From positions 31,971,792-32,035,791 of the forward strand of contig NC_092382.1 in the NCBI RefSeq assembly GCF_030028105.1: DNA of 64,000 bases. Direction: 5' to 3'. The DNA comes from Mobula birostris. Taxonomy: Eukaryota. Positions 18,537 through 64,000 of this stretch are shown here, piece by piece. Both the position numbers and the translations under genes were made by a program. Below the pieces are notes generated by a model. That model had not been told where the DNA came from. It saw only the letters and a program-made list of their open reading frames with translations, and made no database searches. How positions within the stretch are numbered: the first letter of the stretch is position 1; each line of letters starts with the position of its first letter.

Positions 18537-18854
18537 CAATAACACGCAGAAAGATGGTCGCTGAGGTTCGGGAGCCATTAGTTGGAACGATCGTCACACG
18601 GTATTCCCCATTGTCCAACATGTTCACCGACTTCAGCAGAAGCGACCCATTGGAGATGAATACATAAGCCCGCGATGTGTAGGCCTTGTCAACGGTCACG
18701 GTCTGGCCGATCCACTGGGCGATTTTTTTCCCCTTAAAAATCCAGTTTCCACTGATGACATTGCCCGACGGCCGCACTGAAAAGAGCGCATCTCCCCCGA
18801 CGGTGACATTTATCTGGCTGTGCTCAACGAAAATGGTAAACTGCTGAGACTCAC
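18537..18854 (-). CDS. CEACAM-like gene A, exon 2: IgV (N) domain without the canonical disulfide
   Basis: 318-nt phase 1-1 exon, polypyrimidine/CAG acceptor and GTAAGT donor. Reads GESQQFTIFVEHSQINVTVGGDALFSV...SRAYVFISNGSLLLKSVNMLDNGEYRV...LRVI, with NGSLLL and DxGxY motifs and no Cys, as in CEACAM/HEPACAM/CD2-type V domains. Confidence 0.9.
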
Positions 18855-19056
18855 CTGACAGAGAGAAAATCGTATGAGAGAAAAGCGACAGACACGGATA
18901 GAATCGAGAACTGCACGTAACTCAATCTGTACAAATACCAGGGGTATCTACATAGCTCAGTAACGTCGACCCTTATAACCCTGATGTTCATGACTCCAAC
19001 CACCCGCCACTCTGATGATTATCCGACCACTGACTGTTCGAGAGAGTGACCCTCAC

Positions 19057-19108
19057 CCGCCGTTATGCAGAGACAAAGAACGAGCGCTGCGAAGGGCAGT
19101 CCCGACAT
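19057..19108 (-). CDS. CEACAM-like gene A, exon 1 (signal peptide MSGLPFAALVLCLCITAG)
   Basis: ATG at 19108-19106, hydrophobic leader, phase-1 GTGAG donor; same peptide in genes B and C. Confidence 0.85.
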
Positions 19109-19157
19109 CCCGACAGAGAGCAGCGCCGATCTCTGTTACACTCGGAGACTGAGCTGC

Positions 19158-27990: not shown

Positions 27991-28249
27991 CGAAACTCCC
28001 GAGCCATTCACAAGGATCTACGCCAGACACTTCTGTCCCGGTTCCCCATCACCTCCGATCCCGCGCCAATTCACCACCCCGACCTTTCGAGCAGTATTCG
28101 TCTCCTCTTTAATTCCCTCCCAGTGACCCCCCTCAATTTCCATTTGAATAGATGATTCATAAAATATGAACATAATTTCCCAAACACAACCGATTCAATC
28201 TTGCAATTCTGTCCCATCCACAAGTAGCAAAGGAGTGGGAAAAAGTAGT

Positions 28250-28425
28250 AGAACTTCACACTTATCTCCCCGGGAATCTTGATTTGATTAGCTTTATCTG
28301 AAGACAGAGATATCCTGTCATTATCATGGATGGGTCTGTTATCCTCTAACCACGTTCTTCCCTGGATCCTGCCCTTGCGTCAAAAATGAATACAGCCCTA
28401 TTTCCACGGTCCTCCATTATTTTAA
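28250..28425 (-). pseudogene. Fragment of a further IgC2 A-type exon
   Basis: RTWLEDNRPIHDNDRISLSSDKA matches RTWFKDNQPI...RIFTSPDKA of genes B/C; frameshifted. Confidence 0.55.
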
Positions 28426-29046
28426 ATGAAGAGTTAAAATTGCTCTGGCAAGTCCGGGACATTATTCGCTGTAGCGTCAAATGAGCATCTCCGAAAATTT
28501 GACTTATACATAAATCCAGCAGTTTGACATAAATCCGAGTGTGATAGAGAAGTTCGTGACCGAAGGTCGAAGGAGATATTAGCTTCAAACTTTCTGCACA
28601 ATCACTCAAAGAGTTGACCTGCATGTACCTGTAACGAGAGCTGTATACCTCATCTCCTTCTACCTTAGGCCACGAACTTATCAATTACCCATGCTGTGGT
28701 CACCTTCTGGAGGTCTAAGATCCGTATGCTCCACGACGGCTGGATTATGTTTGTAAATGTCAGAGGGGACTATGCTGAAAAATAAATGTGCTGGGTTTTC
28801 TAAAATTGACTCTTTCTACATTAGGCCACGAATTTATCAATAACCCCTCGTAAATCCCTTCCGGACCTCGAGTATATCTATAACTCTGCTCCATCTTGCC
28901 TGTCCCTGACGAACAATTTGTTGTTTTTTTTCTCTCTTTGATGACTAAAGTAGACAGAATAGAACAGCGTGAAATTTGCAAAATAAAATTGCTCTGAAGT
29001 TGAACCGGCCGATTGAAGTGTAATATCGACAGAAACTTTTACTTGC

Positions 29047-29314
29047 CCTGTACTGTGATCTTTACAGAAATGCTGTTGTGTTTCCTGGTTATTTTTTTGT
29101 CAGCCTGACAAGTATACTTTCCATTATCAACGTTGTTTTCTAAATCGGTGGTGTCGCTCTGTCCTGTCTGCGCATGATGTGTCCCATTGCGCCATCTATA
29201 GTCAGCACTGGGAATTGACTGGGCGGAATAATTTATTTCAGACTTGGAACGATATCTGTCGCAGGTAGACCCACCTGCGGCACCTTCAACAGAAATCTAG
29301 ACGGTATGTTGTTT
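29047..29314 (-). pseudogene. Decayed CEACAM-like IgC2 B-type exon
   Basis: YSAQSIPSADYRWRNGT...TGQ...DNGKYTCQA...SVKITVQG resembles CEACAM B domains; first Cys to Tyr, in-frame stop near the 5' end, GC donor. Confidence 0.7.
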
Positions 29315-29369
29315 CTGTTATCAGTTATGCCGAATTTAATTTGAAGTAATCAGCTACATGCACACTTAC

Positions 29370-29636
29370 AGTTAACCTGCAGGTAGATTCCTGCGATGTC
29401 GCTGGTATAATCATCGCTAACGGGACATTTGTTCTTTCTTGTTTCAGTTCTGTGAAGGCGGGTTATGTTCAGATTAACTTTTTCTGAAGACAGAGATATT
29501 CTGTCCTTATCCTGGGTGAGTTTGTTCATGTTCTTCTTTGAAATGTTCCCTTGTTTGTCACAAGTGAATTCAACCTTACTGTTGCTTTCCACGTGACTTA
29601 AATTGCTGCTGGTTACACGGTCACGAGACACGGGCT
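29370..29636 (-). pseudogene. Decayed CEACAM-like IgC2 A-type exon
   Basis: ACAG|AG CCC GTG start and T|GTAAG end; EPVS...VEFTC...DRISLS...KC...YLQVN; core Trp and DxGxY lost. Confidence 0.7.
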
Positions 29637-30009
29637 CTGTAAATAGACGTGAAAGAGGAATGGAACTAATCCATTTTACTGCATTCTTGTCATACCAGTT
29701 GGGGCTCTGTAGACCAAATTACGATCGTGACCGACATATGGGTCTTAATGGCAAATGAATTGCAGCTTCAGAACACGAGGGCGCGCGGCTTCAGTTCTGC
29801 TACGTCATGGGGGGGGGGCGAGTGTTACGTTTTTCGATGAACAAAGGCTCTGCTGCTAAGTTAACACATTTCACGTCACATGCAGGTGATCATATACCCG
29901 ATACTGATTCTGATTATGCACTCTACTGCCCTATGTGCGATGCTAAATTGTTTGCACTAGAGGGAGTGTCAAAAACAGAGCGTCATTGTTGTCAAATACA
30001 TGTTCCGCC

Positions 30010-32960: not shown

Positions 32961-33670
32961 GGCCCTTAATTATTGAGCTGGCATTCCTGTGGAACCGCCT
33001 TTTGAAGATGGCCTGGATTATGGCGAGGCTTCTACCGTTATGGATCCGATCGCGTATACAACACTCTGCGATCTTTGTCGATCCTGTGCATTGGAGCCTG
33101 CATATCAGACCGTGATCAAAACTGTCAGTATGCTCTCCACCTTCCATGTGCGTACATTTCCCAGTCTTTGGGGACGTACCAATACCAAATCTCTTCAATC
33201 ACCGAATTGAACACAGCCGCTGACGTGCCTTTCGTTGTTAATCTATGAATATGTGAGGCCAAACAGAGAAGGAGCTTAAAGCTGCTCACACTTAACCTCC
33301 ACCGCCCATTTAATGAGGACTGGTGTGAGTTCTCCCCACTTCTCCTTCCTGGAGTTAACTATCAATTCCTTGTCTTGCTGTCTTTGTGTGGAAGATTATT
33401 GCAGCGACAGCACCTGACCAGTCTATCAATCTCGTAGCAAAATAGCTTTGAGAAAATTGCCACGTGAAATGTTAGAGGAGGACAGAAGATATTAAGGGCC
33501 GAATAGCCTTCAGTTTCTTCAGCGTTTTATATCGCTCAGTCTCCGCCTTCACGCTGTGCGATGCAATCAGCTCCGGCTTTTCAGATAACAGACTCTCTAG
33601 ATTTTCATTGGTGCCCAGGAAATGTAGCTCAGTCTGCGAGTGTAACAGAGATCGGCGCTGCTCTCTGGTG

Positions 33671-33707
33671 ATGCCGGCTCTCATTCTTTGTCTCCCCATT
33701 ACGGCGG
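33671..33707 (+). CDS. Possible alternative upstream leader exon of gene B (MPALILCLPITAG)
   Basis: Degenerate tandem copy of exon 1 with ATG and phase-1 GTGAG donor. Confidence 0.35.
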
Positions 33708-33785
33708 GTGAGGATCACTCCCTCCAACCGTTAGTGTTCGGATAATCAACACAACAGCGGCTGGTTGTAGGGAAGAAGATGAGAT

Positions 33786-33895: not shown

Positions 33896-33947
33896 ATGTC
33901 GGGACTGCCCTTCGCAGCGCTCGTTCTCTGTCTCTGCATAACGGCGG
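33896..33947 (+). CDS. CEACAM-like gene B, exon 1 (signal peptide)
   Basis: ATG...GCG G|GTGAG; MSGLPFAALVLCLCITAG. Confidence 0.85.
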
Positions 33948-34146
33948 GTGAGGATCACTCTCTCGAATCGTCAGTGGTCCGATCAACAAGAGTGGCGGGT
34001 GGTTGGAGGAAAGAAGGGCAGGTTACAGGAGACGATCTAACTGAGCTAAGTACAGATCTCAGCTGTCTGTGCTGATTGAGCCCAGTGCAGCTCTGCAGTC
34101 TCTCCGCATATGTCGCTTTTCCCTCATACCATTTTCTCTTCCTCAG

Positions 34147-34464
34147 GTGAGTCTCAGCAGTTCACCATTTTCGTTGAGCACAGCCAGATAAATGTCACCG
34201 TCGGGGGAAATGCGCTCCTTTCGGTGCTGCCGTCGGGCAATGTCAACAGTGGAAACTGGATTTGTAATGGGAGAACAGTCGGCCAGTGGATCGGCCAAGC
34301 CGTGTCTGTTGACCCTGCCTACACATCGCGGGCTGAGATATTCATCTTCAATGGGTCGCTTCTGCTGAAGTCCGTGAGCGCGCTGGACAGTGGGGAATAC
34401 CGTGTGACTATGGTTCCAGTGAGTGGCCCTCAAACCTCAGCGATCGTCACTCTGCATGTTATTG
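34147..34464 (+). CDS. CEACAM-like gene B, IgV (N) domain exon
   Basis: 318-nt phase 1-1 exon within ORF 34110-34472; NGSLLL and DSGEY motifs; single unpaired Cys (WIC). Confidence 0.9.
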
Positions 34465-35029
34465 GTAAGTGAGACTGAGTTACACAGAGTCATGCGATCT
34501 CGCATTATAACTTTCAGTTTATTCCTGGTGTCATGTAATCCTTATTGTTCGTTACTGGATGGCGGATCATTCCGAATGAAAACTAAACCGAGTAAACAAC
34601 ACAGTTTCGTGTTAGATTTAGCTTGAAGTGCTTCCCGGAAAGGCCTCGGCGATGATCGGTGTCTGTGAATGCAAGAAGAACCCTACCAATCCCACATTTC
34701 AGACTGCTCAACTTTCACTCACAACCTGCAAAGCTGCAGATTAGTAACTATGACAGGATCAATGAACAATCCACGAGAGTGGACCAGACAACATTCTGTG
34801 AAAATACTAATATAAATAAATAGTAATAAATAATGAGAGCATGAAATGACGAAATAAAATGTCTGCACAGTGAGATCATTGGTTGTGGGAACATATCACT
34901 GGATGGGCAAGTGAGTGTGGTTACCCGCTTTCTTTCAGAGCCTGATGCCTGAAGGGTTGTAACTGTTCTTGAACCTCGTGGTGCGATTCCTGAGGTTCTT
35001 GTACCTTCTATCTGATGGGCGAGTGATTC

Positions 35030-36015
35030 TATACTCTACCTGCTCCTATGCTCTGTTCCTCTAGAAATGAATGCCAACATCGCATTCGCCTTCTTCATCA
35101 CCGGCTCAACCAGGAAGCTAACCTTCAGTGTATCCGCTACGAGGACTCGCAGGTCCCGTTGCATCTCAGAACTTTGAATTCTTTCCCCATTTAAATAATA
35201 GTCTGCCCGTTTATTTCTTCTGCCAAAGTGCGTAACCATACACTTTCCAACACTGTATTTCATTTGCCACCTCTTTGCCTATTCTTTCAATCTATCCAAG
35301 TCTCTCTGCAGACTCTCCGTTTCGTCAGCACTACCGGCCCCTCCACCTATCTTCGTATCGTCAGCGAACTTAGCCACAAAGCAATCTATTCCATAATCCA
35401 AATTGTTGATGTACAATGTAAAAAGAAGCGGCCCCAACACGGACCCCTGTAGAACACCACTGGTAACCGGCAGCCAACCAGAATAGGATCCCTTTATTCC
35501 CACTCTCTGTTTCCTGCCAATCAGCCCCAATGCTCTATCCACCTATGTAACTTTCCTGTAATTCCATGGGCTCTTATCTTGTTAAGCAGCCTCATGTGTG
35601 GCACCTTGACAGAAGCCTTCTGAAAATCCAAATATACAACATCCACTGCATCTCCCTTGTCTAGCCTACTGGTAATTTCCTCAAAAAATTGTAATAGGTT
35701 AGTTAAGCAGGATTTTACTATCTTGTCATATGCCTCCAGGTACTCTGTAATCCCATCCTTGACAATCGACTCCAACAACTTCCCAATAACCGATGTCAAT
35801 CTAACAGGTCTATAATTTCCTTTTTGCTTCCTTGCCCCCTTCTTAAATAGCGGAGTGACGTTTGAAATCCTCCCGTGCTCCGGAACAATTCCGGAATCTA
35901 TCGACTTTTGGAGGATCATCGCTAATGCCTCTGCAATCTCCACAGCTAGTTCCTTCAGAACACGAGGGTGCATTTCATCTGGTCCGTGAGATATATCTAT
36001 CTTTAGACTATCCAG
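35030..36015 (-). mobile_element. CR1 RT fragment in gene B intron 2
   Basis: ORFs 35036-35973 with YLDFQKA and KFADD. Confidence 0.9.
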
Positions 36016-36437
36016 CTTGACTTCTCTAACTTCCGCTAATTCCCCGTCTCCCCCTCGTACCCCATCCGTTATTTATTTCTATACACACATTCTTTCTCTC
36101 TCTCTCCTTTTTCTCTCTCTGTCACTCTGACTATACCCCTTGCCCAACCTCTGGGTTTTTTCTCGCACTCCCCCTTTTCCTTCTCCCTGGGTCTCTTGTC
36201 CCATGATCCCCTCAAAGCCCCTTTGCCAATCAACTGTCCAGCTCTTGGCTCCATCCGTCCTCCTCCTGTCTTCTCGTATCATTTCGGATCTCCCTCTCCT
36301 CCTCCCACTTTCAAATCTCTTACTAGCTCTCCCTTCAGTTAGTCCTGACGAAGGGTCTCTGCCCGAAACGTCGACTGTACCTCTTCCTAGAGATGCTGCT
36401 TGGCCTGCTGCGTTCACCAGAAACTTTGATGTGTGTT
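36016..36437 (+). mobile_element. Penelope-type terminal fragment carrying a hammerhead motif
   Basis: Pyrimidine-rich stretch, then CTGACGA..GAAAC core and the GATGCTGC..CCTGCTGCGTTCACCAG arm shared with 13433-13595 and 31130-31260. Confidence 0.7.
36341..36376 (+). ncRNA. Minimal type I hammerhead ribozyme motif
   Basis: AGTC-CTGACGA-A-GGG(tctctg)CCC-GAAAC-GTC-GACT: stem I AGTC/GACT, stem II GGG/CCC, palindromic ACGT stem III, GUC cleavage triplet. Confidence 0.7.
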
Positions 36438-36659
36438 GGTTGATACATGGAGAGGTGGTAAATTAGATTAGACATTGTCTCAATGGAAGAAGTAAAAGAG
36501 TGGTAGTAGAGGATTGCTTCTCAGAGCGGAGGCCTGTGACTGGTGGTGTGCCAGAGGGAACAGTTCTGGGTCCATTGTTATTTGTCACCTATATCAATGA
36601 TCTGGATGATAATGTGGTAAATTGGATCAGCAAATTTGCTGATGATACAAAGATTGGAT

Positions 36660-37250
36660 TACTGTCTTTGCTGTCCTGCTTCACAACTTCCTTCCTAAAA
36701 TCCTGTAGTCTGTTTTCAGGACCTCGTCTCGTTTCCTACCTAGGTAGTTGGTACCTATATGTACTACGACCTCCACCTTTTCACCTTCCCACTGCAGAAT
36801 ATGGGGAACCCGATCAGAAACATCCCAGACCTTGGCACCTGTGAGGCAACCTACCATCCGCATTTCTTTCCTGCATCCACAGAATCGCCTGTCTGACGCC
36901 CTGACTATAGACTCCTCTATAACTGCCGCCTTCTTTATTTTCCTACCCTTCTGAGCCACAGGGCCAGGATCTGTGCCAGAGGCCACTGTTGCTTCCCCCA
37001 AGTAAGCTACCCCCGCCCCGCCCCCAACAGTACTAAAACAAGAGTACTGTTAAGGGACACAACCAGAGGAGTACTCTCTTACATCTGACCCTTCTCTCTC
37101 CTGACTGTTACCCTTATATGTCCTCGAGGCCCCGGTGTGACTACCTGCCTATAGCTCCTCTCTATCACCTCCACACTTTCCCCGACCAGACAATGGTCAC
37201 CGAGCTGTATCTCCAGTTCTCTAATGCCGTCCCTAAGCACGCAGCTGGCG
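36660..37250 (-). mobile_element. CR1 ORF1 esterase fragment
   Basis: ESIVRASDRRFC...HIGTN. Confidence 0.75.
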
Positions 37251-38222
37251 CAGAGGCCGGGAGACTAAAATGAACAAGACTGGAAGGCGGGTAAATGCCA
37301 CTAGCTCAGCTAGAATATTTTGCGGGATAAAGGAGTCCTGTCTGACCCTAACAATGCCCTTGCAAAATCAGCTACTGATTTGCTGATGATGCCTGTTGGG
37401 ATCAGAGGCAGAGATGTCGAAATACCAGATCTTATTACAGCTTGCAGACCGTTGTCGTTTTGACAGTAGAAAGCTGATGCAGTTTCCAAAATTGCGCAAC
37501 ATATGTACTGGGCATGTCTTTTTTCTCGGAAGCTGTGAAAACATTGTCAGGAAATGTGCATCTGTCATGCAACGAATTTCAACAGAAGGTTAGTAAGATA
37601 CATCCCGCAGTTTGGCGTGGTTTTGAGTTCGTTTCGTGTTAACAGAAGGTGGCGGAATTCTGGAAGGCTTTGATAGGAGGAGTACTTAACCGACCACGGA
37701 TTCAAAACACTGAGCACCGTCAACTCCAACGCCAGTTTCAGATCACAAGAGGTGTATATGTGAGGCTCCCTTGCTCTTCTGATGTATTTCCGGGTTTCCC
37801 TGTTGGAAACTCTGCAAGCATAAACACCAGTGTGATTGAAAGTCTGGGCAGCGGTGGGGAACTGTTCAATGAACTGAAAAGGGGAAGATATTATATCGAG
37901 CCACAGGATTTACACTTGCGAAAGAAATGGTGACAGTTGACGGCAGATGAATATGAATCAGTTTTGGGATGCGAGACATGCTGAGATATTAAAGTACGTC
38001 TGAATACAATGGATTGGGAGGTTCGTCATGTGTCCAAACATACCTGTATATTCTTCTCACAATTTAACCGCTAATTATCATATTACCTGTCCATTTTTAA
38101 TCCACAGCAAAATCATGAGATTTGTCATTGACTGAGTAGCTCTATAGATTTTATTGACCGCTGAGGTACACAGGAATAAACATTAGATTTTCTGCAGACC
38201 CGGCACCTGATTAGCGCACCAT

Positions 38223-38402
38223 NNNNNNNNNNNNNNNNNNNNNNNNNNNNNNNNNNNNNNNNNNNNNNNNNNNNNNNNNNNNNNNNNNNNNNNNNNNNNN
38301 NNNNNNNNNNNNNNNNNNNNNNNNNNNNNNNNNNNNNNNNNNNNNNNNNNNNNNNNNNNNNNNNNNNNNNNNNNNNNNNNNNNNNNNNNNNNNNNNNNNN
38401 NN
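38223..38402. other. Assembly gap within gene B intron 2
   Basis: N run. Confidence 1.
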
Positions 38403-39830
38403 CTGCTCACAATTCTCCAGGTGAGGCCTCACTGGTGCTTAAAGGGTTAAAATATTACATCGTTGCTTTTATAATCTCGTGCACTTGAAATTAATGCGAA
38501 CATTGCATTTGCCTTCCTCTCCACAAAATCAACATGAAAATTAAACTGTACTGAATCCTGCACAAGGACTGTACAATGCTCTTTAATATGTTGTATTTTC
38601 TCTCCACTTAGGGGATATTCAACTCTCATTTACTTACCAAAGTGCATGACCGTTCGCTGACCGGCACTGTATTCCATCTGCCATTTCTTTGCCCATTCTC
38701 CTAATATGTCTAAGTCCTTATGTGGCCTCTCTAACTCCTCAAAGCTACATGCCCCTCCGCGTGTATTCATGTCGTCTGCAAACTTTATAAGAGTGCAATC
38801 AATTCCATCGTCCAAATCATTGACACTGAACAGGAAAATAATAGGCCCTAACACAGACCACCCTGGAACACCACTAGTCACTGTCAGACAGCCAGATAAA
38901 AGCTCACTATTTGGCTTTCGCCAATCGGCCACTACTAATCCATGCTAGATCTTTCCTGTAATACTATTAACTCGGAGCTTGTAAAACAGCCTCATGTATG
39001 GCACCGTGTCATGGCCTTCTGAAAATTCAACCGGTTATTGTTTGTCGATCCTGCCTGTTATTTATTACAAAGATTCCAACAGATTTGTCAGGCAAGATTT
39101 CGCCCTCAGGGAAGCATGGTGACTGTAGCCTATTCTGCCATGTGACCCAAGTACCCTGAGACCTCATCTTCAATAATCGACTCCTTTCCAAACAATTCTG
39201 ACCAACTTCCCTCTCATGGGTCTGTAATTCAATTTACACCATTGTAATACTGAAACATAGAACTTCAGCTTCTCCTTCACAAATTGCAGAGTGAATTCGA
39301 TCATATTATAAACAATTCCGAGAAGTTGTTTGTTCCCTTTTCCCTTAAGGTCTCGACTCAATTCTGGATAATTGCTCAACACCAAATCCAGAATAGACTT
39401 TCTGCTTCTCGGCTCTACCATGAGCTTCCCTGAAACGCCAGCTCGCAGCGACGCAGCAAGATCGCACTGCTGGAATTCAGCACCAACCTGATTTTCCCAA
39501 TCTATCTCATATTGAAATCCCCCATGGCTTATTGGAACACTTCCCCTTTTTCATGCATTTTCCATTACACGTTGTAATTTTAGGCCACATCATTATTCTG
39601 TTTGGTGATACTGCGCAACCCCCATCAGGGACTTTTTACCCTCGCTGTTCCACAGCTCTCTGCACATCAGTTTAATACATTCCGACCCACTTTCACCTCT
39701 TTCTAATAATTCAACTTCGTTTTTTTTCCCAATAGAGCAACGCCGACCCGCTTGTCCTCCTGCTTGACGTTTCGATACAATACGTCTCCTTGGACATCAA
39801 GCTCCCGGCTATAATTATTCCTCCTTGATT
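38403..39830 (-). mobile_element. Old CR1 ORF2 remnant shared with gene C (about 61900-62800)
   Basis: KFADD and SILDLVL remnants; colinear similarity. Confidence 0.7.
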
Positions 39831-40150
39831 CAGTGTTGCCTGCAATATTATAGGACTAATATTGTAGGTCCAGTAAGATGTATAAAGACAGAATATACGC
39901 GGAGGCCAGCTTATTCCCATTTGTTCCAGAGGACAATTAAACTATAGCAAGTTACTTAGTCCCGCTAAATAACAGCAGTAAAGCTTCAATCTCTGCGGGG
40001 TTTCATTCAGTCTGCGATTTGACCTGATATCGAAACACATGGGAATAAGAGATAGGAGTGGCGACGATATTGAGTTGGCGAAACACAAATACAGTGAAGG
40101 TGTAATTAAAACCAATCGTAAAACCATTTGCATTTTCATTGTAATTACAG

Positions 40151-40426
40151 AGCCAGTAACTGGGGTTACTGTGGTGGCCAATGATTCCACTCCCCTGGAA
40201 AACCTCGATACCATCGCACTGAGTTGTGACGCGTCGGGCCCTGTTCAGACACGGACATGGTTCAAGGATAACCAACCCATCCGGGAAAACAGAAGGATAT
40301 TTACATCTCCCGATAAGGCGAAACTGACTATAATCAGTGTTAACAGAAACGACGCAGGGGCGTACAAGTGCATCGCATGCAACCCAGCCAGCAGTGGCTC
40401 TGGAGAGACCTACGTGCAAGTTTACT
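40151..40426 (+). CDS. CEACAM-like gene B, IgC2 A-type domain exon
   Basis: 276-nt phase 1-1 exon EPVTGVTVVANDSTPLENLDTIALSC...WFKD...LTIISVNRNDAGAYKC...VQVY; Cys/Trp/DxGxYxC pattern intact, like CEACAM A domains. Confidence 0.9.
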
Positions 40427-40501
40427 GTAAGTACACAGTTAATCAACCGCGTTCATTTGTATCGGATATTACTATACTCGACAGGTATTCTCATTTTAGA
40501 G

Positions 40502-40760
40502 TTGGGCCAGAGAAGCAGAACATTCGACCGGAGAGTCCGGGTGTTTGGAATATTGTGTCAAACCTGACATTAACTTGCTTTGCTCGGTCAGTCCCTTGGG
40601 GTATGTATGCATGGTACAACAGGAACAAGCGCCTGCGGACAGGGCAGGAGCTCACCGTCGCGTCAGTGCGCTCGGTTGACGTTGGTTATTATGGATGTTA
40701 CGTTTTCTAGAGGATTTACCAAGAGGAGTTTTAATCTTACTGTCCAGGTTTATGCACAAG
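40502..40760 (+). pseudogene. Gene B IgC2 B-type exon, frameshifted (pseudoexon or soluble-isoform exon)
   Basis: GPEKQNI...LTLTC...YAW...DVGYYGC, then an extra T gives TAG at 40708-40710; length 259 (3n+1); weak GAG acceptor with a competing TAG 2 nt upstream. Confidence 0.75.
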
Positions 40761-41040
40761 GTGAATGAATGGGTCTCCCTCTAGTGTATACAAAAATACG
40801 ATGGTCTAAGATCCAAGCATTTGCCTTTCACGAACTCCACACTCCTCACTCCGTATCTTCACTCCTGTTTATAAGTGGTTCCTGAGAATAAAAGTATAGT
40901 CATAATAATAATATTTCCTTACCGATGCCAGGAGCGTTGAATGTTGGTTAGTGAATGTAAAATAACCTCCTCAATCACAAGGCAGCAACTATTTTATATT
41001 CACCATTTCCGTCCAGAACTGGTATGTTTTACTCCTGTTT

Positions 41041-42127
41041 TGTGAAAACCGTTCGGGACAGGTATCATGGTCCGTTCCCTTGTATCAGTTGGGCTGAATC
41101 AGAAGTTCCTGATACTCGTATTCGGGCTGAGAATATAAGAGGCCCTGCATTCGACCGTGGGTGCTGGTGCGTCTCGTCAGTGGGCCGGCCTCGCCTCCGT
41201 GGGGTAAAGCAGGCCGTTTTTGCCGTTGCCCTGCGGTTGGATCAGTCCCTTCCTGTTCTTGCCTCCGTTGGGTAAGCCATGCCGTCTTTGCCGTTACCCT
41301 CAGGCTGGACTGTTCCCTCCTTTCCCATTCCCTTCCTTCTGAAGCCTTTCCTTACCTGAGGCCTTGCCTGCGTCCTTGCCTGTAAGACAGTCAGGTTCTA
41401 CCGGCCAGAGGAAGACAGCAGCCTCGCTGTGTCTAGATATGTAAATGTCTTTCTGGTGTTGGGAACGGACTCTGCTTCCACGCCTTCGCTAAGTGGGTCC
41501 GGCCGTTTGCCGTTACCATGTGTTCAGAACCGTCTCTGTGTCCACGCCTTTGCAAGGTAGGTCAGGCCGTTTGCCGCTACCTTGTGTTGAGAACCGTCTT
41601 GTCGTGTTCAGCATTCTGTGTATGAGTCCGCTCTCTACGTCCTAATTCCAAGGAGGGGTCCCTGCTCAGTGTTCCATGTCCCTGTGTTTCTGTCTGTCGC
41701 AAGTCCGTGGTTCCGTGTTACCATGCTGTAGACCAAGGTTCCAAGCGTCCAGTCCTCGCCCACGGCTCCGAGCGTCCAGTCCTCGCCCAAAGCTGGGAGC
41801 GTCCAATCCTCGTCCAAGGCTCCGAGGTTCCTGTCTGCCAAGACCAGGTCATATCTTCGCCTAACTCCGGAGTCCGAACCCGAGTCAAGAACCAGGCTCT
41901 AGGTCCTTATCCAGCCTCTGGCTTGGAATCCAAGCCGAGGCTCCTAGTTCCCAGTTCCTTGTCCTGGTCCTGTTTTCTTAGCTAAAGTCCTAGCCCATAT
42001 ATCTGTTCCTGTCCCATCTCCTAGTCTGTGTCCTGTACCGTCACTAAGCCTAGTCCGGTCCAGTTCCTAGTACTTCAGCGTCCGTGTCTTGCATATGGGT
42101 CCGCTCCCGGCGCCCCCCTCTATGACA
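41041..42127. mobile_element. Putative solo-LTR-like element with internal tandem repeats
   Basis: TGT...ACA ends; its 3' part is shared with 30550-30845; its 5' start recurs at about 63975; no TSD seen. Confidence 0.4.
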
Positions 42128-42936
42128 CGAAGACGATATCGGAGGTGGTAAGACATACCAAAGGCTGAACAGTGGTGTATGTGCATTTTAGCGAGGTACT
42201 CGACAAGGTTCGCAAAGCTGGGATCATTCTGAAAGGCATCGTGAAGGAGTGGAGAGAAATGGGGCTACGTAGATTCAGAGTTGAATTGTGACAGATGAAA
42301 AAAGTGTTAATAGATGGCACCAGTTCTGGACTATAAGAGCATACGTCATAGGACAGGGAATTCGGCCATTCTGCCCATCGAGTCTTCATCGCCATTCACT
42401 CTTGGCTGATCCTTTTCCCCGCTCCTGAACCCTACTTCTTGGCCTTTTCCCCGTAACCTTTGATGCATTGTGCATTCAAGAACCTATCAAAATCTGCCTT
42501 AAATACACCCTACGAGCTGGCCCCCACTGCTTTCTGTGGTAGCAAATTTCACAAATTCACTAACTTCTGGCTGACGAAATTTCAGCGCACTCTATTTTAA
42601 ATTGACGCCCCTCTATCCTGAGGTTGTGCCTCCATATCCGAGAGTGCCCCACCGCATGAAACACGCTTTCCACATCTGCTCTCTCTAGGGCTTTCAACAT
42701 TCGGAAAATTCCAATGGGATTCCCAACCGCCCCCGTCTTTCTAAATTCAAACGAGTACGCCCCCAGCGCAATTAAACGCTCCTCGTATGTTAACCCTTTC
42801 ATTCCGGGAATAAGTCTTGTGACGCAATGTACAACTCTAAACTGACTCAGTGTAATTGCTGTGAAAATGAATTTGCCACTGATAAAGACGTGTTCTCGGA
42901 ATGTAAGATGAATATATTTCCCTTGTGTGTTATCAG

Positions 42937-43057
42937 CAAAAACAGATGGCAATTGTACCCCCGGCTCTGGCGCAATCGTGGGCATTGTGCTTGGTTTATT
43001 TGGCATGGGCCTGATCGGCGGAGTCAGTGGATGGTTGATCGCGAGGAAAACTGGCGG
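42937..43057 (+). CDS. CEACAM-like gene B, transmembrane exon
   Basis: 121 nt, KTDGNCTPGSGAIVGIVLGLFGMGLIGGVSGWLIARKTGG; resembles the GAIAGIVIG...KTG pattern of mammalian CEACAM1 TM. Confidence 0.88.
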
Positions 43058-43968
43058 GTAAATGCATGTTTTCTCCGAATATCGCCTCTACTTTCAATTG
43101 TAGAGTTTTTTTTTTTTGGCAGAAGTGGGACATCGGATGCTTTAACGCGAATTTGCTATGCGACAGGTGAATGCAGTAATTTACACTAGCCGGAAAGGGA
43201 AATAGATTAATATCTGGTGACAGTACATTGTCATGGCGCAGGAATGGAACAAGAACGGGACATAGATGTAGATACCCATCAAACACTGCTGTCCTTTCTG
43301 TGGGCGGTAAATCATATCAGACCATAACACCATAAGATATAGCAGCAGATGTAGGCCTTTCAGCCCATCGACACTGCTGCTCTATTCAATCATGGGTTGA
43401 CCCAATTCTTCCAGTCATCTCCACGCCCCTGCCTTCTCCCCATACCCTCTGATGCCCTGGCTAATGAAGAAACTATCTATCTCTGCTTTAAATACAGCGA
43501 ATGCCTTGACCTCCACAGCCGCTCGTGGCAACGAATTCCACAGATTTACCATAGTCTGACTAAAGTATTTTTTCCACAACACTGTTCTAAATGGAGGTCC
43601 TTCAACCCTGAAGTCGTGCCTTCTTGTCCTATAATCCCTTGCCATGGGAAATAACCTTGCAATATGTGACTGTATATTACCATGTCGGTAACATTCAACG
43701 TCGGGTATAATGGAGCAGTTGGTCAATCCTCGCGTCTCGTCTGGTGATTTTAACACAATGGGAACCGCTCGGACTCCACCTGTTTGCAGTTTTTTAAATC
43801 ACATTTCCCAAAAGGTGCTAAAATTGATCGGCAATTCTAAAATCATTCTACAGATCAGGGATAGTCTGTGGACAGAATCAGCATTAAGCTTCCACGTTCA
43901 TGGCTTCCGCTCACTGATGCATGTGTCACTTTCTCCTGGAAAACTGAGATGCGAAGGTCCAAAGCAGT

Positions 43969-44736
43969 ACATAGAAACATAGAAACATAGAAAATAGGTG
44001 CAAGAGTAGGCCATTCGGCCCTTCGAGCCTGCACCGCCATTAATTATGATCATGGTTGATCATCCAACTCAGAACCCCGCACCAGCCTTCCCTCCATACC
44101 CCCTGACCCCCGTAGCCACAAGGGCCATATCTAACCCCCTCTTAAATATAGCCAATGAACTGGCCTCAACTGTTCACTGTGGCAGAGAATTCCACAGATT
44201 CACCACTTTCTGTGTGAAGAAGTTTTTCCTAATCTCAGTCCTAAAAGGCTTCCCCTCTATCCTCAAACTGTGGCCCCTCGTTCTGGACTTCCCCAACATC
44301 GGGAACAATCTTCTTGCATCTAGCCTGTCCAATCCCTTTAGGATCTTATACGTTTCAATCAGATCCCCCCTCAATCTTCTAAATTCCAACGAGTACAAGC
44401 CCAGTTCATCCAGTCTTTCTTCATATGAAAGTCCTGCCATCCCAGGAATCAATCTGGTGAACCTTCTTTGTACTTCCTCTATGGCAAGGATGTCTTTCCT
44501 CAGATTAGGGGACCAAAACTGCACACAATACTCCAGGTGTGGTCTCACCAAGGCCTTGTACAACTGCAGTAGTACCTCCCTGCTCCTGTACTCGAATCCT
44601 CTCGCTATAAATGCCAGCATACCATTCGCCTTTTTCACCGCCTGCTGTACCGGCATGCCCACTTTCAATGACTGGTGTATAATGACACCCAGGTCACGTT
44701 GCACCTCCCATTTTCCTAATCGGCCACCATTCAGAT
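43969..44736 (-). mobile_element. Young CR1 3' insertion specific to gene B
   Basis: (ACATAGAA)n tail; AAGCAGT at 43962-43968 and 44739-44745 (likely TSD); absent from the paralogous intron of gene A. Confidence 0.9.
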
Positions 44737-44924
44737 GTAAGCAGTTATCGTCACTGTTGTTGAGATGGAGTAGGGCTGGATTTGGGAATCTGATAACGGG
44801 AACTTTCAAGTAATAACTGGGGAATTTCCAATGGATTGATAGGAATTATATCATTCGATGTATCAGCGCAAGAAAGTCACTTCCCGCCAAATTCATGTTT
44901 TGAACTTTGCTTCTGTTTATTCAG

Positions 44925-44980
44925 GATCAAAGATCTGCCACAATCGCAATACGGAGCGATCACCAATTCCGGAAGAAAGA
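44925..44980 (+). CDS. Gene B cytoplasmic exon 1 (IKDLPQSQYGAITNSGRK)
   Basis: 56 nt, TTCAG/GTGAGT, phase 2-1. Confidence 0.82.
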
Positions 44981-45960
44981 GTGAGTGATCTGCATTTCAA
45001 CTGTTCTGCTGCTGAGCTACTGGAAATCTTAATATTTCATTTAATTATGGTAGTTCCGAGTGAACAGAATCTGGAGGTTTTCATCCTAGCGAATTCGCAC
45101 GAATAATGATGTGTAACACTCGCTTCGCCTTGCAGCTCACATTTGGGGGTGATAACGCCCTGCCCGGCCATACTTAATAAATCTCGTTTGGATGGATGCT
45201 GCGCGATGTGTCCCCTGTTTCAAATCGGTATCCAGAAATAACAAACAGTGCACAATATGCTGTTAAACAATTAAGATTTATAACTCTGACTTAGACTATG
45301 TGGTTAGTAGAGAAACAACATATAAAAGAAAAAGGCGCCGATCCTTATCAAACAGGCTGTGCACATATCGTCGGAGCTCACTCAGCAGGATATTCTTTCC
45401 ACCTTTCGATTTCCTGCGAGCGTCGCCGAGCCCCGGACTTCCGCCCGGAGTTCAACCGGTCGGGCGGCCGACCGACTCTCACAAGTCGCGTCTCCTCTCC
45501 TCATTCCCCTCGTGCCTTCTGGCAAAAATCCGCGAAACAAACATCTTCCAGACACACAATAAACAACAACATTTCGCCCTTGGATAGCCATTGTAAATCA
45601 ATGTTCCGTTATCTCTGGTCATAACCCAAACATTGCAGCTACAGGAAAACCATTACCTCAGCAGTTAACATGACAGAGAAGCCAGTACAACTGCAAGGGT
45701 TGTTGGGATGTCCATTTAAATAAGTGGAAATTTTCAACTCAAAATTACAAAATCATTAGAGGGACGGCGTGATATTTTCCTTTCTGTATCTCATCTCAGT
45801 TATTTGTCGTCTATACACTGGATTGCCTGGTTCTGGCGTTTGAGGGAATGTGGTTCATGCTATAACTGGCATTTTTTTTGTGTCCGGATTGACATCTGCT
45901 TTTTTAACAACGACCCCTCATGCTCTTCCCTGCTGTGACATATCTGATTTGTTCCCGCAG

Positions 45961-46025
45961 CCACCTCGGATATAACCACTCTGATCGCATCGGGATCCTA
46001 CGAAAATTTCCCAAGGAATGAGCAG
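45961..46025 (+). CDS. Gene B cytoplasmic exon 2 (TTSDITTLIASGSYENFPRNEQ)
   Basis: 65 nt, CGCAG/GTTGG, phase 1-0. Confidence 0.82.
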
Positions 46026-47155
46026 GTTGGATCTTTGTATTGTGTTCATGATCTCAATGGCTGTTTTGCGAAGGGTAGATTAGAACACAAGTAATGTGAT
46101 GGGTATCGCTCATCGGGCCCTTTGGAGCTGATTGGGCATTACATAAGATCATGGATGATCAATTCCGTTTCTCATTCTCATTTACCAAGGAACGACGCCT
46201 CGAAATAGAACCATATTTGATGGCGTGAACATAGACCTTTTCCTCATGGAATTTTGTTCGCTTCCCACCTATTCTCCACACTGAATTCAAATATCTTCCC
46301 CTCCACCTGCCCAACAACTGCTTCTGGTGCCCCTCCTCTCTCTTTCCATTTCTGCCACCGTCTAGTCTCTCTTCAGCCCTTTACCTTTCTCCACTGTCCA
46401 TGCCCACCCATCGCCTTCCAGCTAGAAAACGGTCCGGTGCAATACTGCTTCCGCTTTTCCGCCTCCTTTCCAGTTCAGTGGAAGGGTCTCGGCCGAAACC
46501 GTGGACTGTTTGTTAATTTCCATTGATGCTGCTGAAACGCTGCGTTCCTCCGGCAATGACTCTGTGTTGCTCTGCACCTGCAGAATTTCTTCACTGGAGA
46601 CATCTGCGGTTTCCACACAATCCATAATTCTTGTACTCTGCAAAAACATATCTTGCTCTGACTGGATTATATTTCATGAAGGACTTTGTAAATGTCCGAT
46701 CAAAGCGGGCAAGTCACAGAGTGAAGGCACGGTCAGGTCTGCCCACGCCCACTGTGATCAGCTATGATCTTTGTGAGAGTTTACGAGAAAGAGCAAATAC
46801 GGTCAGCATCCTGAGGCCACAAGTCCATATCCCCAATCTGTCACGTGCACGTTCTGACCCAGACTAATCTCGCAGGGTGAATGATTTTTAATATGAGTTC
46901 CTCATGAAGTGAGCTACCATTATTGATGATTGCTTACTAATGATTTACTGTCGTTTGGGAACGTTCTTGATGTCAGCGAAAATATAGATTGTTCTCACAC
47001 TGAATCAGAAACACGCAGTGTGCAGAATGGCGAATGGTGCAATATTGCTCCAAGCAGCAATGAACGTGAAAATTGATACCGACGGGGTTGATATGCGGGG
47101 AGACAGAATACGCTTGGTTAGACGTCCAACAGAAATCTTCAAATTCTCGTTTCAG

Positions 47156-47197
47156 GGCGCAGGTAACAACGCACAAGATGGAAACTCCACTTACACG
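47156..47197 (+). CDS. Gene B cytoplasmic exon 3 (GAGNNAQDGNSTYT), first ITAM tyrosine
   Basis: 42 nt, TTCAG/GTGAG, phase 0-0. Confidence 0.82.
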
Positions 47198-48410
47198 GTG
47201 AGCGAATTATTTGTTCAATCCCTTTCTGAGTAATTGTTTCCACTTAACACAGTGAGAAACAGACCCTGAAGTGAGACATTCCATTGTGAGAATGACATCA
47301 AAGAGGCCACAATGGGGGACACAACAGTGGCGGATGAACTCATGAAGTATTATGTGTTGGTCCGCACTGTGGAGCAGACCGTCAGTATGACAGTGTCAGG
47401 ACACGGAAGTAGTTGCAGTCACGATAATAATAAGAGAATGTGAGGCATCCTGGAAGTGCTTAAGTCAACTGGACTAAACTGGACTAAATGGACGAGATTA
47501 ACCACACCCCGGGTCTCTGAAATATACCATAAGACGCCGCTTAAGTCCACATAAGAAATATGCCGCTGAAGAGGTAGCAGAGGAATTAGCAATAATTTCC
47601 CAAACTTCACATCAGTATGGAAATATTTGGGAGGACTGAAAGGTTGCAAATATCACTCTAGTCTCTCTGGAGGAAGGGAAACAGAGGACGGGTGATTGTA
47701 GGCGCCTTAGCTTACCTTCGGGGAGACGTCAGGTATGAGGAGCGCTTACTTACTGCAACCCCCTACTCACGGCAGTTCAGGAGGATGAGAGGTCGGACAC
47801 TTGAAACGTCGAATATTGAAAGACCCAAATAGAGTGGAAGTGGAGAGTACATCTAATTCCGGGGGACTCTGTGCCCAGAGGACAGAGCCTCAGAATACAG
47901 GGAACTCCCTTTGGAAGAGAGACTTTAGGAGCAATATCTTCAGCCGTAGTGTGGTGTACCCTGTGGAATTTATTGCCGGATATGGCAGTGTTGTCAAAGG
48001 TAGTGAAGCCAACATTACACTTGTCTGCTTTTCTACCTGCCAGTTAAATTTTAGTGAATCCTGCTCTAAGACTACTGAGTTGATAATTTCCTGATTAGAG
48101 AGAGTGTCAAACATTCTGGACAGAAGGCAAGTGATTGAGGGTGAGAATTGTAATGAATCAGCCATGATGAATGGCGGAGCAACCTTCGCCAAATTCTTCT
48201 CCTCTGTCTTATCGTCTTACGGTTCTCTCCTGTCTCCTGCGATAAGTAATAAGATCTCTTTCAACCCTTGTCCCTCTGTCCCACGGTCTATCCGAGCCGA
48301 CTTATTACATGTGTGGAAGTCCTTTTCGGTGTTATTCCAATTCTCCTCTATCACACAGTGCGTTTGTTATTAACTTCTGCAAATCACAATGATTTACTTG
48401 CGTTTAACAG

Positions 48411-48454
48411 GGACTGATTCTGGGCAACCGATCTCTTTACAGTGATCTGAAGAG
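48411..48454 (+). CDS. Gene B cytoplasmic exon 4 (GLILGNRSLYSDLK), completes the ITAM
   Basis: 44 nt, AACAG/GTAAGT, phase 0-2. Confidence 0.82.
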
Positions 48455-48756
48455 GTAAGTGAGCAGAACATGAGGCTATCGATGCAAAATGTGACTTGCG
48501 AAGGAAACGCGTCCATTATTGTCAGGCCAATGAGTTGAGCAGATTCCTGGCTGTGCCTGCTTTCAAATTACCCGGTGATTAACAGACGAAAGACATTTAA
48601 CACTGTGGGACATTTGTCATAGGCCTGTGGCCTTACGAGAGAGATAAATTATCTGCAAATTCTCATTGACACGGTGCCTGACGCCGAATAAGGAAATCTC
48701 GCCCGTATTTGGTCTCACCAACTTTATTTCCATCTGTTTGCTGAGATCGGTGAGAA

Positions 48757-49666
48757 GCTGGGTGGCAGTGTGAAAAGTGTTATGAGAATGCAGGGTGACT
48801 TGGACATGCTGGGTGAGTGGGCAGATGCATGACAGATGCAGTTTAATGTGGATAAATGTGAGGTTACCCACTTTGGTGGTAAGAACAGGAAGGCAGAATG
48901 TTATCTAAGTGGAGTCAAGTTAGGAAAAGGGGAAGTACAACGAGATCTAGGTGTTCTTGTACATCAGTCACTGAAAGCAAGCATGCAAGTACAGCAGGCA
49001 GTGAAGAAAGCTAATGGCATGCTGGCCTTCATAACAAGGGGAGTTGAGTATAAGAGCAAAGAGGTCCTTCTGCAGCTGTACAGGGCCCTGGTGAGACCAC
49101 ACCTGGAGTACTGTGTGCAGTTTTGGTCTCCAAATTTGAGGAAGGACATTCTTGCTATTGAGAGAGTGCAGCGTAGGTTCACAAGGTTAATTCCCGGGAT
49201 GGCGGGACTGTCATATGTCGAAAGATTGGAGCGACTGGGCTTGTATACTCTGGAATTTAGAAGGCTGAGAGGGGATCTTATTGAAACATATAAGATTATT
49301 AAGGGATTGGACACGCTGCAGGCAGGAAGCATGTTCCCGCTGATGGGTGAGTCCAGAACCAGAGGCCACAGTTGAAGAATTAGGGGTAGGCCATTTAGAA
49401 CGGATTTGAGGAAAACTTTTTTCACCCAGAGAGTGATGGATATATGGAATGCTCTGCCCCAGAAGGCTGTGGAGGCCAAGTCTCTGGATGCTTTCAAGAA
49501 AGAGATGGATAGAGTTCTTAAAGATGGCGGAATCAAAGGTTATGGGGATAAGGCAGGAACTGGTTACTGATTGTGGATGATCAGCCATGATCACACTGAA
49601 TGGCGGTACTGGCTCGACGGGTCGAATGGCCTACTCGTGCACCTATTGTCTATTGTCTATTGTCTA
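48757..49666 (+). mobile_element. CR1 3' insertion in the last intron of gene B
   Basis: ORF 48836-49375; (TCTATTG)n tail; absent from the 373-bp paralogous intron of gene A. Confidence 0.9.
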
Positions 49667-49697
49667 TTTAACATGAATTGTTTATTTATTTCCTCAG

Positions 49698-50742
49698 ATG
49701 ACCTCACTGGTGAACAGAAGAGGATGGTTGCCCGGGACTTCACACATCAGAAGGACAACCATCGTGGAGGATGCAGCTTTCAAAACGTCTCTTACTTTTT
49801 ATATATAACCGTTATCCATGTTTCTGTCATATGTCTCTCGAGTGTGACATTTTCACTTCGAGATATCACTGAAGGTTGTGACTCTCTTTTTTCTATCGTA
49901 GCGGCTTAATTGTCTCGCCTCAGCGCAGACTCCTGCTTCCCCATAATAGGCACCCTCGTGCTTCCACCAACATTGGACCTCTCAGCTTTGCTCTGCGATA
50001 TGAACTCTATAATCTCATTGCCCACATCATAGGCGGTTCCGTTGCTCAAGACATGTTTCGTCAGATCGGGAACATAGCAGAGTGAGACTCTCAGCCTTCA
50101 GACTAGCATCAATTTTCTCTCGTCCTGGAGCCTGGTGCAGCAGCGGAAAGGGTCACGTGACAAAAATTCCAATGATTTCATCCTTCCCCTCCCGGGCCTT
50201 CATATTAGCAATGTATCAGTATTCGCTCACTAAATACTGTGAGATATGATGTGAGTTTCGTCTTGTCGAACGACCAGATTTTTACCTGACACCCAGCCCT
50301 ATTTCCCTCTGACACTTGTTTTGGGATCATTCCCGACCGCAATAGACACCTTGATGCCTTCTTATACATCCAGCAGTTGCCAGAAACCACACCTCCGCCT
50401 TCCGCCGCACACCGTGGTCACAGAGGCACAAGTACATTTGGACAGCGTGGGTGGTGGGGGGCGGGAGGGGTGTGTCGTTTGTGCACGAACATTCACAGCA
50501 GAAGGGATTTTCCAGGCACTGGGAAATACAGAGTTCGCGGTCGGGTTTGGAAAATAAGCAACAATATAACGTAAACAAGGAGTCTTGGAAAGAAAAATAA
50601 AACACTGTGGTGACGAATTCACAAAGAATTATCAAAGTCTGACCCAGACCATGAACACGAATAGAACATTAATACCAGGATAACGATTCTCAGGTGTCTG
50701 AAATATTTACAATATGCAACACTCGACCGATGATTGAATAAA
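49698..50742 (+). other. Gene B last exon: final Arg base, TGA 49699-49701 and 3'UTR (approximate end)
   Basis: TTTCCTCAG|ATGA is conserved in gene A; AATAAA at 50596-50601 and 50737-50742. Confidence 0.65.
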
Positions 50743-59585: not shown

Positions 59586-60927
59586 GCTGGACTCGGTTTC
59601 GTGGGAAAGCGATTATAATTGTGAACGGTAGCACTGTGATATTCTCATTAGACCAAAACCCACTCACTGGAGATTGAACGAGAAAAAGTTCAATATTCGA
59701 GTCTATCTCGGAAGCTGGGGGATACAAATTGAAATGTGATCTTTCAAATTAAAATGCGAGTCGACGAGAGTACTCGTGATTATAGGATTGAAAAACGATT
59801 GCAGGAACGATTCCGGTGGATGTTACCGAATCTGGGGTCTTGTGTGTGGGGAGAGAGGATCGATAAGACATTTCTCTTTTGAAGTACATAAGACCTATTG
59901 GTGATCGTGAAGAGTTACACAAAACCATGAGGTCGGTACAACTACAGGGCCTTTATGGTGAAAAGAGACTCATCTCAAAGCGACGAGATGACTAAAGATT
60001 TCACGAGGAACCTGATGCTAATTAGAAAGAGCAGTCGGAGGAGTTGGTAGATGCGGACGCAGTCAGTGTTTGAGATGGAGATCGCCAAATACGAAAATCG
60101 GACAAGCTAGAATAAAAATGACATATGCCAGGTAATTTCAACTAGCTCAGCTAGAATATTTGGTGGCGTAAGTCAGTCTGGGCAACGGGCGTGCTTCAGG
60201 CTTGTGTGACTCTTACAGATACATTCTGAACATGTAATTTTCTCGGAAGCTTAGAACACATTGTCCAGAAATGTGCATCTGTTTTGCGATGAATTTCAAC
60301 AGGCGGTTCAGAAGATACTTCCCGCAGTTTCGTGTAGGTTTGACTTCGTGTTCACAGGAGGTGGCGGAAGTCTGGAACGTTGATTAGAGGCGTGCTTATC
60401 TGGCCATGAGTTCAAAACTCTAATTACTGACAACTCCAACGGCAGTTGCCGATCACAAGAGGTGTGTGTGCGGGGCCCTTGCTGTTCCAATGTATTTCCG
60501 TGCTTCCCGTTGGAAACTCTGCAAGCAGAAAGAAGATTGTGATTAAAAGACAGGACAGAATTTGAAAGGCGTTGGCCAATTTCCTGAACTGTTAAATTAA
60601 CTAAAAAATGGAGAAGATATGAAATTAAGCGGCAGATTCCCAATTGCAGAATTAGCGGTCACAGTTGTCGGCACATGAATAGAAATCAAGCTTTGGGATG
60701 CAGGACCCTCTGTGATATTTTAATACGGCTCAATCCAATTGATTGAGAACTTCTTCATGTGTCCAAACATACCAATATGTTCTTCACACAAACAAACCAA
60801 CTAATTATCACGTAATCTGTCAATTTTTAACTGACAGCAAAATAATTAAATTTGTGATTAACCGCGTTGCACTACAGATTTTGCTGACCACTGAGGTTCA
60901 GCAGACCTTACACCTGATTATCGCTTC

Positions 60928-63459: not shown

Positions 63460-63700
63460 ATGGGTCAGAGAAGGACAGAATTTGTACCGGAGTGTCCAAA
63501 ATTGTGTCAAAACAGACATTAACTTGATATGCTCTGTCAGTCGCCTCGGGAACATATGCATAGTACAACGTAAACAATCATCGGCAGAAACTCACCCTGG
63601 TGTCAATGAGCTCGGTTGACGTTGGTAATTGCAGATGTCAGGTTTTTTAGTGGTGTAACCAAGAGCAGCTTTAGTCTGACTCTCCAGGTTACCGCACAAG
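63460..63700 (+). pseudogene. Gene C IgC2 B-type exon, decayed
   Basis: Cys to TGA (63525-63527), Trp to TAG, and the same +1 T frameshift as in gene B; length 241 (3n+1). Confidence 0.8.
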
Positions 63701-64000
63701 GTGAGTGAATGTGTCTCTCACTAGTGTATACAAAAACACGATGGTCAAAGATCCAAACATTTCCCCAATCTCGAACTCCCCATTTATCACTGCATACCTT
63801 CAGTCCAGTTCATAAGTGGCCGGTCAGAGTATAATCATAGTAATAACGTTTCCATGGCGATGCCATAAACGTTGAATGTTGGAGAGTGATCTAACAAAAC
63901 TTCCCCATTCAAAAGGCACCAACTAATTTATATTCACCAATTATGTCCAGAACTGGTGAGTTCTATTCCTGTTTTGGGAAAACCGTTAGTGACAGGGCAA

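Follow-up and report, generated by a model that had tools for sequence, protein, structure and literature searches.

The closest described systems are the ITAM-bearing CEACAM receptors of tetrapods. In eutherian mammals, human CEACAM3 and CEACAM4 and dog CEACAM23-30, as far as their published descriptions extend, have a transmembrane (TM) helix without charged residues, four cytoplasmic (Cyt) exons, a phase-0 intron that splits the first YxxL, and an acid-less, ITAM-like motif. The dog expansion and its phase-0 split are reported in PMC2110893, which also gives the 53-nt cytoplasmic exon of mammalian CEACAM1. For CEACAM3 the signalling pathway has been described, and Syk is reported to be dispensable for uptake (PMC7026191). 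The marsupial ITAM CEACAMs have four Cyt exons, a YxN motif in Cyt2, and the first YxxL split in phase 0 (PMC2832619); in the usage of that paper, the acid-less form is "ITAM-like".

Outside mammals, most Xenopus Ceacams have the phase-0 split and a GRB2-type YxNx motif, according to the legend of Additional file 1 of PMC5112662. The reptile endocytic receptors of a recent preprint have 0-2 IgC domains (PMC13278318). Skate ESTs have been given as CEACAM homologues (PMC4079198, PMC3628338). The abstract of PMC3628338 speaks of an ITAM architecture from cartilaginous fish to humans, and ITAMs are shown there for teleosts. We found no description of shark or ray CEACAM ITAM tails in the literature, mostly open access, whose figures and supplements may bear on this negative. 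On the other hand, the phase-0 split, the YxN motif, and the upstream ITIM-like tyrosines are already published for tetrapod ITAM CEACAMs.

Gene structure and tail transcripts

We analyzed a stretch of 64 kb (the window) at 31.97-32.04 Mb of contig C17 of the Mobula birostris genome. This vertebrate DNA is rich in LINEs and contains three CEACAM-like genes in tandem. The gene under study, gene B, is a real, expressed, and already annotated ITAM-type CEACAM-like receptor gene of this ray. Its features, in window coordinates, are as follows.

About 9860-19120, minus strand: gene A, CEACAM-like
33896-49701, plus strand: gene B, CEACAM-like
From about 55200 onward, plus strand: gene C, CEACAM-like
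33896..33947, plus strand: gene B leader exon (ATG, signal peptide), from translation and RefSeq model
34147..34464, plus strand: N (IgV-like) exon; the canonical cysteine pair of strands B and F is absent
40151..40426, plus strand: IgC A-type exon, Pfam Ig_3 E-value 1.5e-12; aligns with CEA A domains; in the RefSeq model
40501..40760 (5′ end approximate), plus strand: IgC B-type pseudo-exon, with a frameshift and an in-frame TAG near 40708
42937..43057, plus strand: stalk and TM exon, helix without charged residue
44925..44980, plus strand: Cyt1 (56 nt; phase 2 to 1), with the codon of Y265 at 44950-44952 in the non-conserved SQYGAI
45961..46025, plus strand: Cyt2, 65 nt, phase 1 to 0; YENF at 45999-46010
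47156..47197, plus strand: Cyt3, 42 nt, phase 0 to 0; YT at its end, the first ITAM half
48411..48454, plus strand: Cyt4, 44 nt, phase 0 to 2; GL, spacer, and YSDL; left out of RefSeq isoform X1
49698..49950, plus strand: last exon, one coding base, TGA at 49699-49701, 3′ UTR continuing past 49950; 0 differences to RNA contigs

Without the B exon, gene B is an open frame of 325 residues, identical letter for letter to RefSeq XP_072130945.1, "CEACAM7-like isoform X2"; a second isoform, X1, is XP_072130944.1. The name given automatically to both entries makes no mention of an ITAM, and human CEACAM7 is a GPI-type protein. Over the N and A domains, the best PDB sequence matches are CEA (E-value 1e-35) and CEACAM1 (1.5e-23, tied with titin), and most of 55 homologues carry CEACAM/PSG-like names in their source. 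The N-terminal IgV-like domain of CEACAMs typically has no canonical disulfide, and the translated N domain of gene B, a weak V-set match (E-value 0.005), has this family feature. The B-type pseudo-exon is omitted from both RefSeq isoforms, and a DNA contig crosses the break (40597-41243) with 0 differences and 0 gaps, from a run that may be the assembly's own sample.

The original prediction had read a spliced tail across these short exons, and the five exons joined to the TM exon at 42937-43057 do translate as it claimed, giving the tail of XP_072130945.1. All tail exon ends are canonical AG/GT. Gene B has four coding Cyt exons with intron phases of 2 (between TM and Cyt1), then 1, 0, and 0, and a last intron of phase 2 leads to the fifth exon with the stop; for mammalian Cyt introns, the phasing usually given is 2, 1, 0, 0. 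In each of the runs X6, X14, and X16, which come from one study and, like all our RNA runs, are classed as RNA from their GT..AG joints alone, none being on record as RNA, a single 1.3-kb contig bears the five GT..AG joints TM-Cyt1, Cyt1-Cyt2, Cyt2-Cyt3, Cyt3-Cyt4, and Cyt4-last. A fourth RNA run has the TM-Cyt1 joint and a contig of matching length, which brings that joint to 4/4 RNA runs; none of the five is in DNA run X1 among the matches listed. Since the Cyt3-Cyt4 joint is present in the RNA contigs (3/3 runs), YT is joined to GL in transcripts, and the predicted phase-0 split of the first YxxL stands.

Upstream of the tail, an RNA contig covers the N exon across 34179-34406 with 0 differences, and the leader-to-N joint is found in RNA contigs at 90% likeness, where it may belong to a paralogue. 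No RNA contig covers either the A or the B exon at 98% likeness, gaps that carry no evidential weight; at 90% likeness, contigs with 6-8 differences cover the A exon. Among the assembled contigs, no single one links N, A, and TM. For a loose end after the TM exon, no exact or near pattern was found in the window, the loci, or the genome. A tyrosine-free exon resembling it is present in paralogues and absent from gene B inside the window.

Tyrosine motifs of the tail

The tail has four tyrosines: Y265 (SQYGAI), Y288 (YENF), Y309 (YT|GL), and Y320 (YSDL). The last two, with a spacer of 7, fit the ITAM consensus YxxL-x(6-8)-YxxL as predicted. The acidic residue (D/E) at -3 of the strict consensus is missing, with N in its place, and among the 15 intact tails of gene B and its paralogues, gene B alone has also lost the acid that precedes the second tyrosine. 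When the 74-aa tail is shuffled 100,000 times, 0.87% of the shuffles contain the ITAM core, 13% the loose ITIM pattern, and 33% YxN; thus, only the ITAM exceeds chance as a pattern. The YEN motif is backed by conservation, and not by rarity of the pattern. Of the 64 proteins that we fetched, 28, from 6 ray and shark species, contain the ITAM core; the YEN tyrosine, although no selection criterion, is kept in 28/28, many of them close paralogues or isoforms.

SQYGAI, proposed as ITIM-like, does fit the loose pattern, but it has no support as a functional element. The strict pattern (I/V/L)xYxx(L/V) is absent from the tail, and the loose one matches both ITAM halves too. A tyrosine stands in the Y265 column in 12 of the 28 ITAM-bearing proteins, and the ITIM pattern is there in one, gene B itself. 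Similarly, 1/24 paralogous tails has the pattern (again gene B), two others having the tyrosine but not the hydrophobic residue at +3. SQYGAI is private to gene B and probably of chance origin.

How does this tail compare with those already described? Comparison of intron positions with CEACAM3/4, suggested by the original prediction, finds the phase-0 split and four Cyt exons common to gene B and the eutherian members as published. The eutherian members have no YxN, whereas gene B has YENF; and CEACAM3 has a YxxM second half, a tested function, and an N domain 88% identical to that of CEACAM1, whereas gene B has YSDL and an N domain 59% identical to that of the ITSM gene described below. The marsupial ITAM CEACAM1-related receptors, as described in PMC2832619, are like gene B in having four short tail exons, YxN in Cyt2, the phase-0 split, and a 7-residue spacer. 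Their motif has the acid (ExxYxxL) where gene B has N, and the stop of gene B lies on a fifth exon; the likeness is one of layout and need not mean orthology. The reptile ITAM CEACAMs of the preprint (PMC13278318) are given three Cyt exons, in contrast with four coding exons plus a stop exon in gene B. As in gene B, their ITAM is preceded by a further tyrosine motif, described as endocytic or in some cases ITIM-compliant; its distance of 17-21 residues before the ITAM corresponds to YENF (21 residues) and not to SQYGAI. Because the same features are in print for tetrapod ITAM CEACAMs, the architecture of gene B is not unusual for the family.

Paralogues and the ITSM gene

In C17:31.8-32.95 Mb, a cluster of 1.1 Mb, a genome search with Cyt4 found 24 matches. 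Fifteen of these tails have an intact ITAM, two have the first tyrosine changed to histidine, six have a stop in Cyt3, and one has an apparent Cyt2 frameshift; with 9/24 tails damaged, the cluster holds decaying copies. The exon lengths 56/65/42/44 are retained in 23 of the 24 tails, and YEN in 23/23 with a readable Cyt2. The pooled pN/pS of the cluster N exons is 0.80, not above 1, for 16 distinct of 23 intact sequences; one exon that has a stop was excluded, as were three that carry 2-nt insertions (0.83 with the three included). By region, the nominal values are 0.91 for C-C′-C″ and 1.13 for F-G. These ratios suggest that the cluster N exons are under weak constraint; positive selection is not proven. 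The motif-codon pN of 0 is partly circular and was set aside.

There is one genome match to an ITSM-bearing CEACAM1-like tail, on contig C9 near 121.9 Mb, and a broken ITAM-type tail adjoins it. The Cyt1 of this ITSM gene has 53 nt, as in mammalian CEACAM1, with phase 2 to 1, and leaves the same remainder by threes as the 56-nt Cyt1 of gene B. LIPE and a TMEM145-family gene lie at C9:132 Mb, 10 Mb beyond the ITSM paralogue, and gene B, on a different contig, has no LIPE/TMEM145 synteny; a search for cornifelin gave no match. Because the ITSM paralogue and the broken ITAM tail are on C9, 10 Mb from LIPE/TMEM145, the C17 cluster looks relocated.

In Xenopus (PMC5112662), as in the ray, there are many ITAM or ITAM-like genes per ITIM gene, and the group 1 N domains are the closest to fish sequences. 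The Xenopus pairs reported there are 80-93% identical in their N domains and are located between lipe and bcl3, whereas gene B is on a contig other than that of LIPE and its N domain is 59% identical to that of the ITSM gene (among 34 other N exons, the highest identity is 75%). If a paired receptor is marked by N identity of at least 80% to a conspecific inhibitory CEACAM, gene B is not one, and since its 59% is below the range of the Xenopus pairs, a decoy role for the ITSM receptor is not indicated. By the same measure, the basking shark has a pair: its ITAM and ITSM models have 92% N identity, cluster at 100/95 in a tree built from 52 distinct N domains, and have the first cytoplasmic stretch in common. 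In that tree, shark and ray rows separate (100/99), with ITAM and ITSM members on each side. Six N domains stand in tandem in the basking-shark ITAM model, which may be a chimera. In the literature we found, there is no account, for cartilaginous fishes, of numerous ITAM genes next to a single CEACAM1-like gene with an ITSM, or of the 92% pair of basking-shark models.

Proposed function and evolution

Our main reading, to which we give a probability of about three in four, is that the spliced product of gene B is a type I membrane protein of CEACAM-like kind (N-A-TM-tail) with a split ITAM and an upstream YENF, likely an adaptor-independent activating receptor like CEACAM3/4. The CEACAM type, the uncharged TM helix, and the conserved YxN agree with the adaptor-independent ITAM receptor originally predicted, the signalling itself being argued by analogy. 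We observe directly the exon structure, the splicing, the uncharged helix, the conservation of Y288, Y309, and Y320, and membership in the 24-copy cluster; the steps of the mechanism are modelled on CEACAM3 and on ITAM biology in general. The N domains would be clustered by a multivalent ligand, for which a microbial adhesin is the likeliest candidate and another CEACAM a possible one, and Src-family kinases would phosphorylate the tail tyrosines. pY309 and pY320 may then dock the tandem SH2 domains of Syk/ZAP70, or single-SH2 proteins as for CEACAM3, and pY288-E-N may be bound by a Grb2-family SH2. The outcome would be either uptake with killing or activation of the cell, kept in balance by the one CEACAM1-like gene that bears an ITSM. 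Counting against the activating reading are the missing acid at -3, the lost acid before the second tyrosine, the damaged tails, the Syk-dispensable uptake by CEACAM3, an N-exon pN/pS not above 1, and the lack of an RNA contig linking N, A, and TM.

Some of these observations could be explained otherwise. Gene B could encode an epithelial adhesion molecule whose tyrosines act mainly in endocytosis or sorting, as YxxL-type signals, with no activation of the Syk type. The acid-less form that gene B has at -3 is indeed called ITAM-like or endocytic in parts of the literature; however, a fixed 7-residue spacing between the YxxL halves and an invariant YEN in rays and sharks exceed the needs of sorting, and we consider this unlikely. 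Least probable is that gene B, though transcribed, is drifting within a birth-and-death cluster and does little by itself, as its dead B exon, the fraction of damaged tails around it, the private substitutions in its tail, and a non-motif tail pN/pS of 0.93 might suggest. A drifting copy is hard to reconcile with a frame open over 325 codons, canonical splice sites, and spliced transcripts in 4/4 runs, and B-less N-A-TM proteins of 325-331 aa are common among its relatives.

Very unlikely, too, is the ITAM-to-ITIM splice switch of the original prediction, by which regulated skipping of Cyt3 would produce an inhibitory isoform that recruits SHP1/2 via SLYSDL (and SQYGAI). The 42-nt Cyt3 is symmetric and its skip would keep the frame, as claimed, but SLYSDL would not be all that is left, as Y265 and YENF would stay too. 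Cyt2 is joined to Cyt4 in 2 of the 64 proteins (P0021 and P0050, from other ray species), and skipping would bypass the stop inside Cyt3 of 6/24 paralogues; yet the two models of a stop-bearing paralogue in the window either end at the stop or omit Cyt3 and Cyt4 together. For gene B itself, full inclusion assembles, and a Cyt3 skip is absent from the listed RNA joints and from both RefSeq isoforms. Moreover, a loose ITIM that fits both ITAM halves and 13% of shuffles, with the strict one unmatched, says little for inhibition. Neither a Cyt3- nor a Cyt4-skipping joint of gene B is among the matches listed, in contigs that drop rare variants. Two joints at 90% likeness (46026-48427 and 44978-47153) were rejected as exon skipping; their intervening letters are not known, and divergent paralogues explain both. 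Omission of the 44-nt Cyt4, on the other hand, is what RefSeq isoform X1 has, with a frameshift and loss of the ITAM. Among the joins in the 64 proteins, which come from predicted models, 27 are full and 4 skip Cyt4 (three species), and the pyrimidine tract of the Cyt4 acceptor is weaker (0.59) than that of any other tail acceptor. On our main reading, a Cyt4 skip that turns signalling off is more likely than a Cyt3 skip that makes it inhibitory.

For the history of the family, we tentatively propose, at somewhat less than even odds, that the last common ancestor of jawed vertebrates already had both kinds of CEACAM, the activating with an ITAM plus YxN and the inhibitory with an ITSM, and that mammals still use the exon phasing of that time. 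Sharks and rays would keep lineage-matched pairs, as the basking shark suggests, and in Mobula birostris the ITAM arm would have moved to a different chromosome, grown to 24 tails, and become unpaired, with the Cyt4 skip as a recurrent ITAM-off switch.

Gene B reveals no new signalling principle, and its modest interest is as an evolutionary extension: the ITAM-bearing CEACAM design, so far known from tetrapods and noted in zebrafish, extends to cartilaginous fishes with transcript support. This bears on whether the marsupial and eutherian ITAM tails were gained independently or inherited from an ancient YxN-plus-ITAM tail. And it makes gene B and its relatives candidate opsonin-independent phagocytic receptors of sharks and rays.

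Paralogue A and its duplicates

A paralogue on the upstream side of gene B lies in the opposite orientation and has the following layout.

9860-19120, minus strand: paralogue A (gene A), N-TM-tail, without IgC exons

The third of its short tail exons, Cyt3, holds a stop, and the acceptor of Cyt4 is mutated. As read from the genome, the tail of paralogue A would retain YENF as its sole motif. When the tails are read across the cluster, the Cyt3 stop is common to six copies. A second copy of the gene A TM and tail exons, with identical defects, is found at locus L005, and positions 1-2442 of the window match 14226-16667 at 100% identity. The identical stretches and the L005 copy point either to a very recent tandem duplication or to an assembly duplication.

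Decayed exons and fragments around genes B and C

The B-type exon of gene C (63460-63701) is disabled by stops, and its lesions differ from those in gene B; by sequence, decay of the B exon has happened in both genes alike. Within the N-A intron, each gene carries an inverted IgC-like fragment (37433-38018 in gene B, 60238-60900 in gene C), and this fragment is covered by RNA contigs with 5-11 differences in 4/4 runs. Directly upstream of the real leader of gene B is a degenerate duplicate of the leader-exon unit (33615-33778, 75% identity). The stretch that separates gene A from gene B contains remnants of Ig and N-like exons in a decayed state (28071-29718, minus strand), which probably represent a CEACAM pseudogene.

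Related exons elsewhere in the genome

About two dozen more N-like exons are scattered beyond the cluster, over 2-88 Mb of contig C17 and 1.1-1.8 Mb of C4; many are near-identical, and the C-strand cysteine is present. Some paralogues (L017, C17:32.46 Mb; L030, C17:32.05 Mb) have a terminal exon without tyrosine linked to TM, possibly a non-signalling decoy form.

The ITSM gene (L063-L066, C9:121.87-121.90 Mb) has a 57-nt exon. This exon is symmetric, bears one ITSM and is missing from some annotated isoforms; if splicing tunes a motif in this family, it would be a stronger candidate than the ITAM-to-ITIM switch that the original prediction proposed for gene B through skipping of the 42-nt Cyt3.
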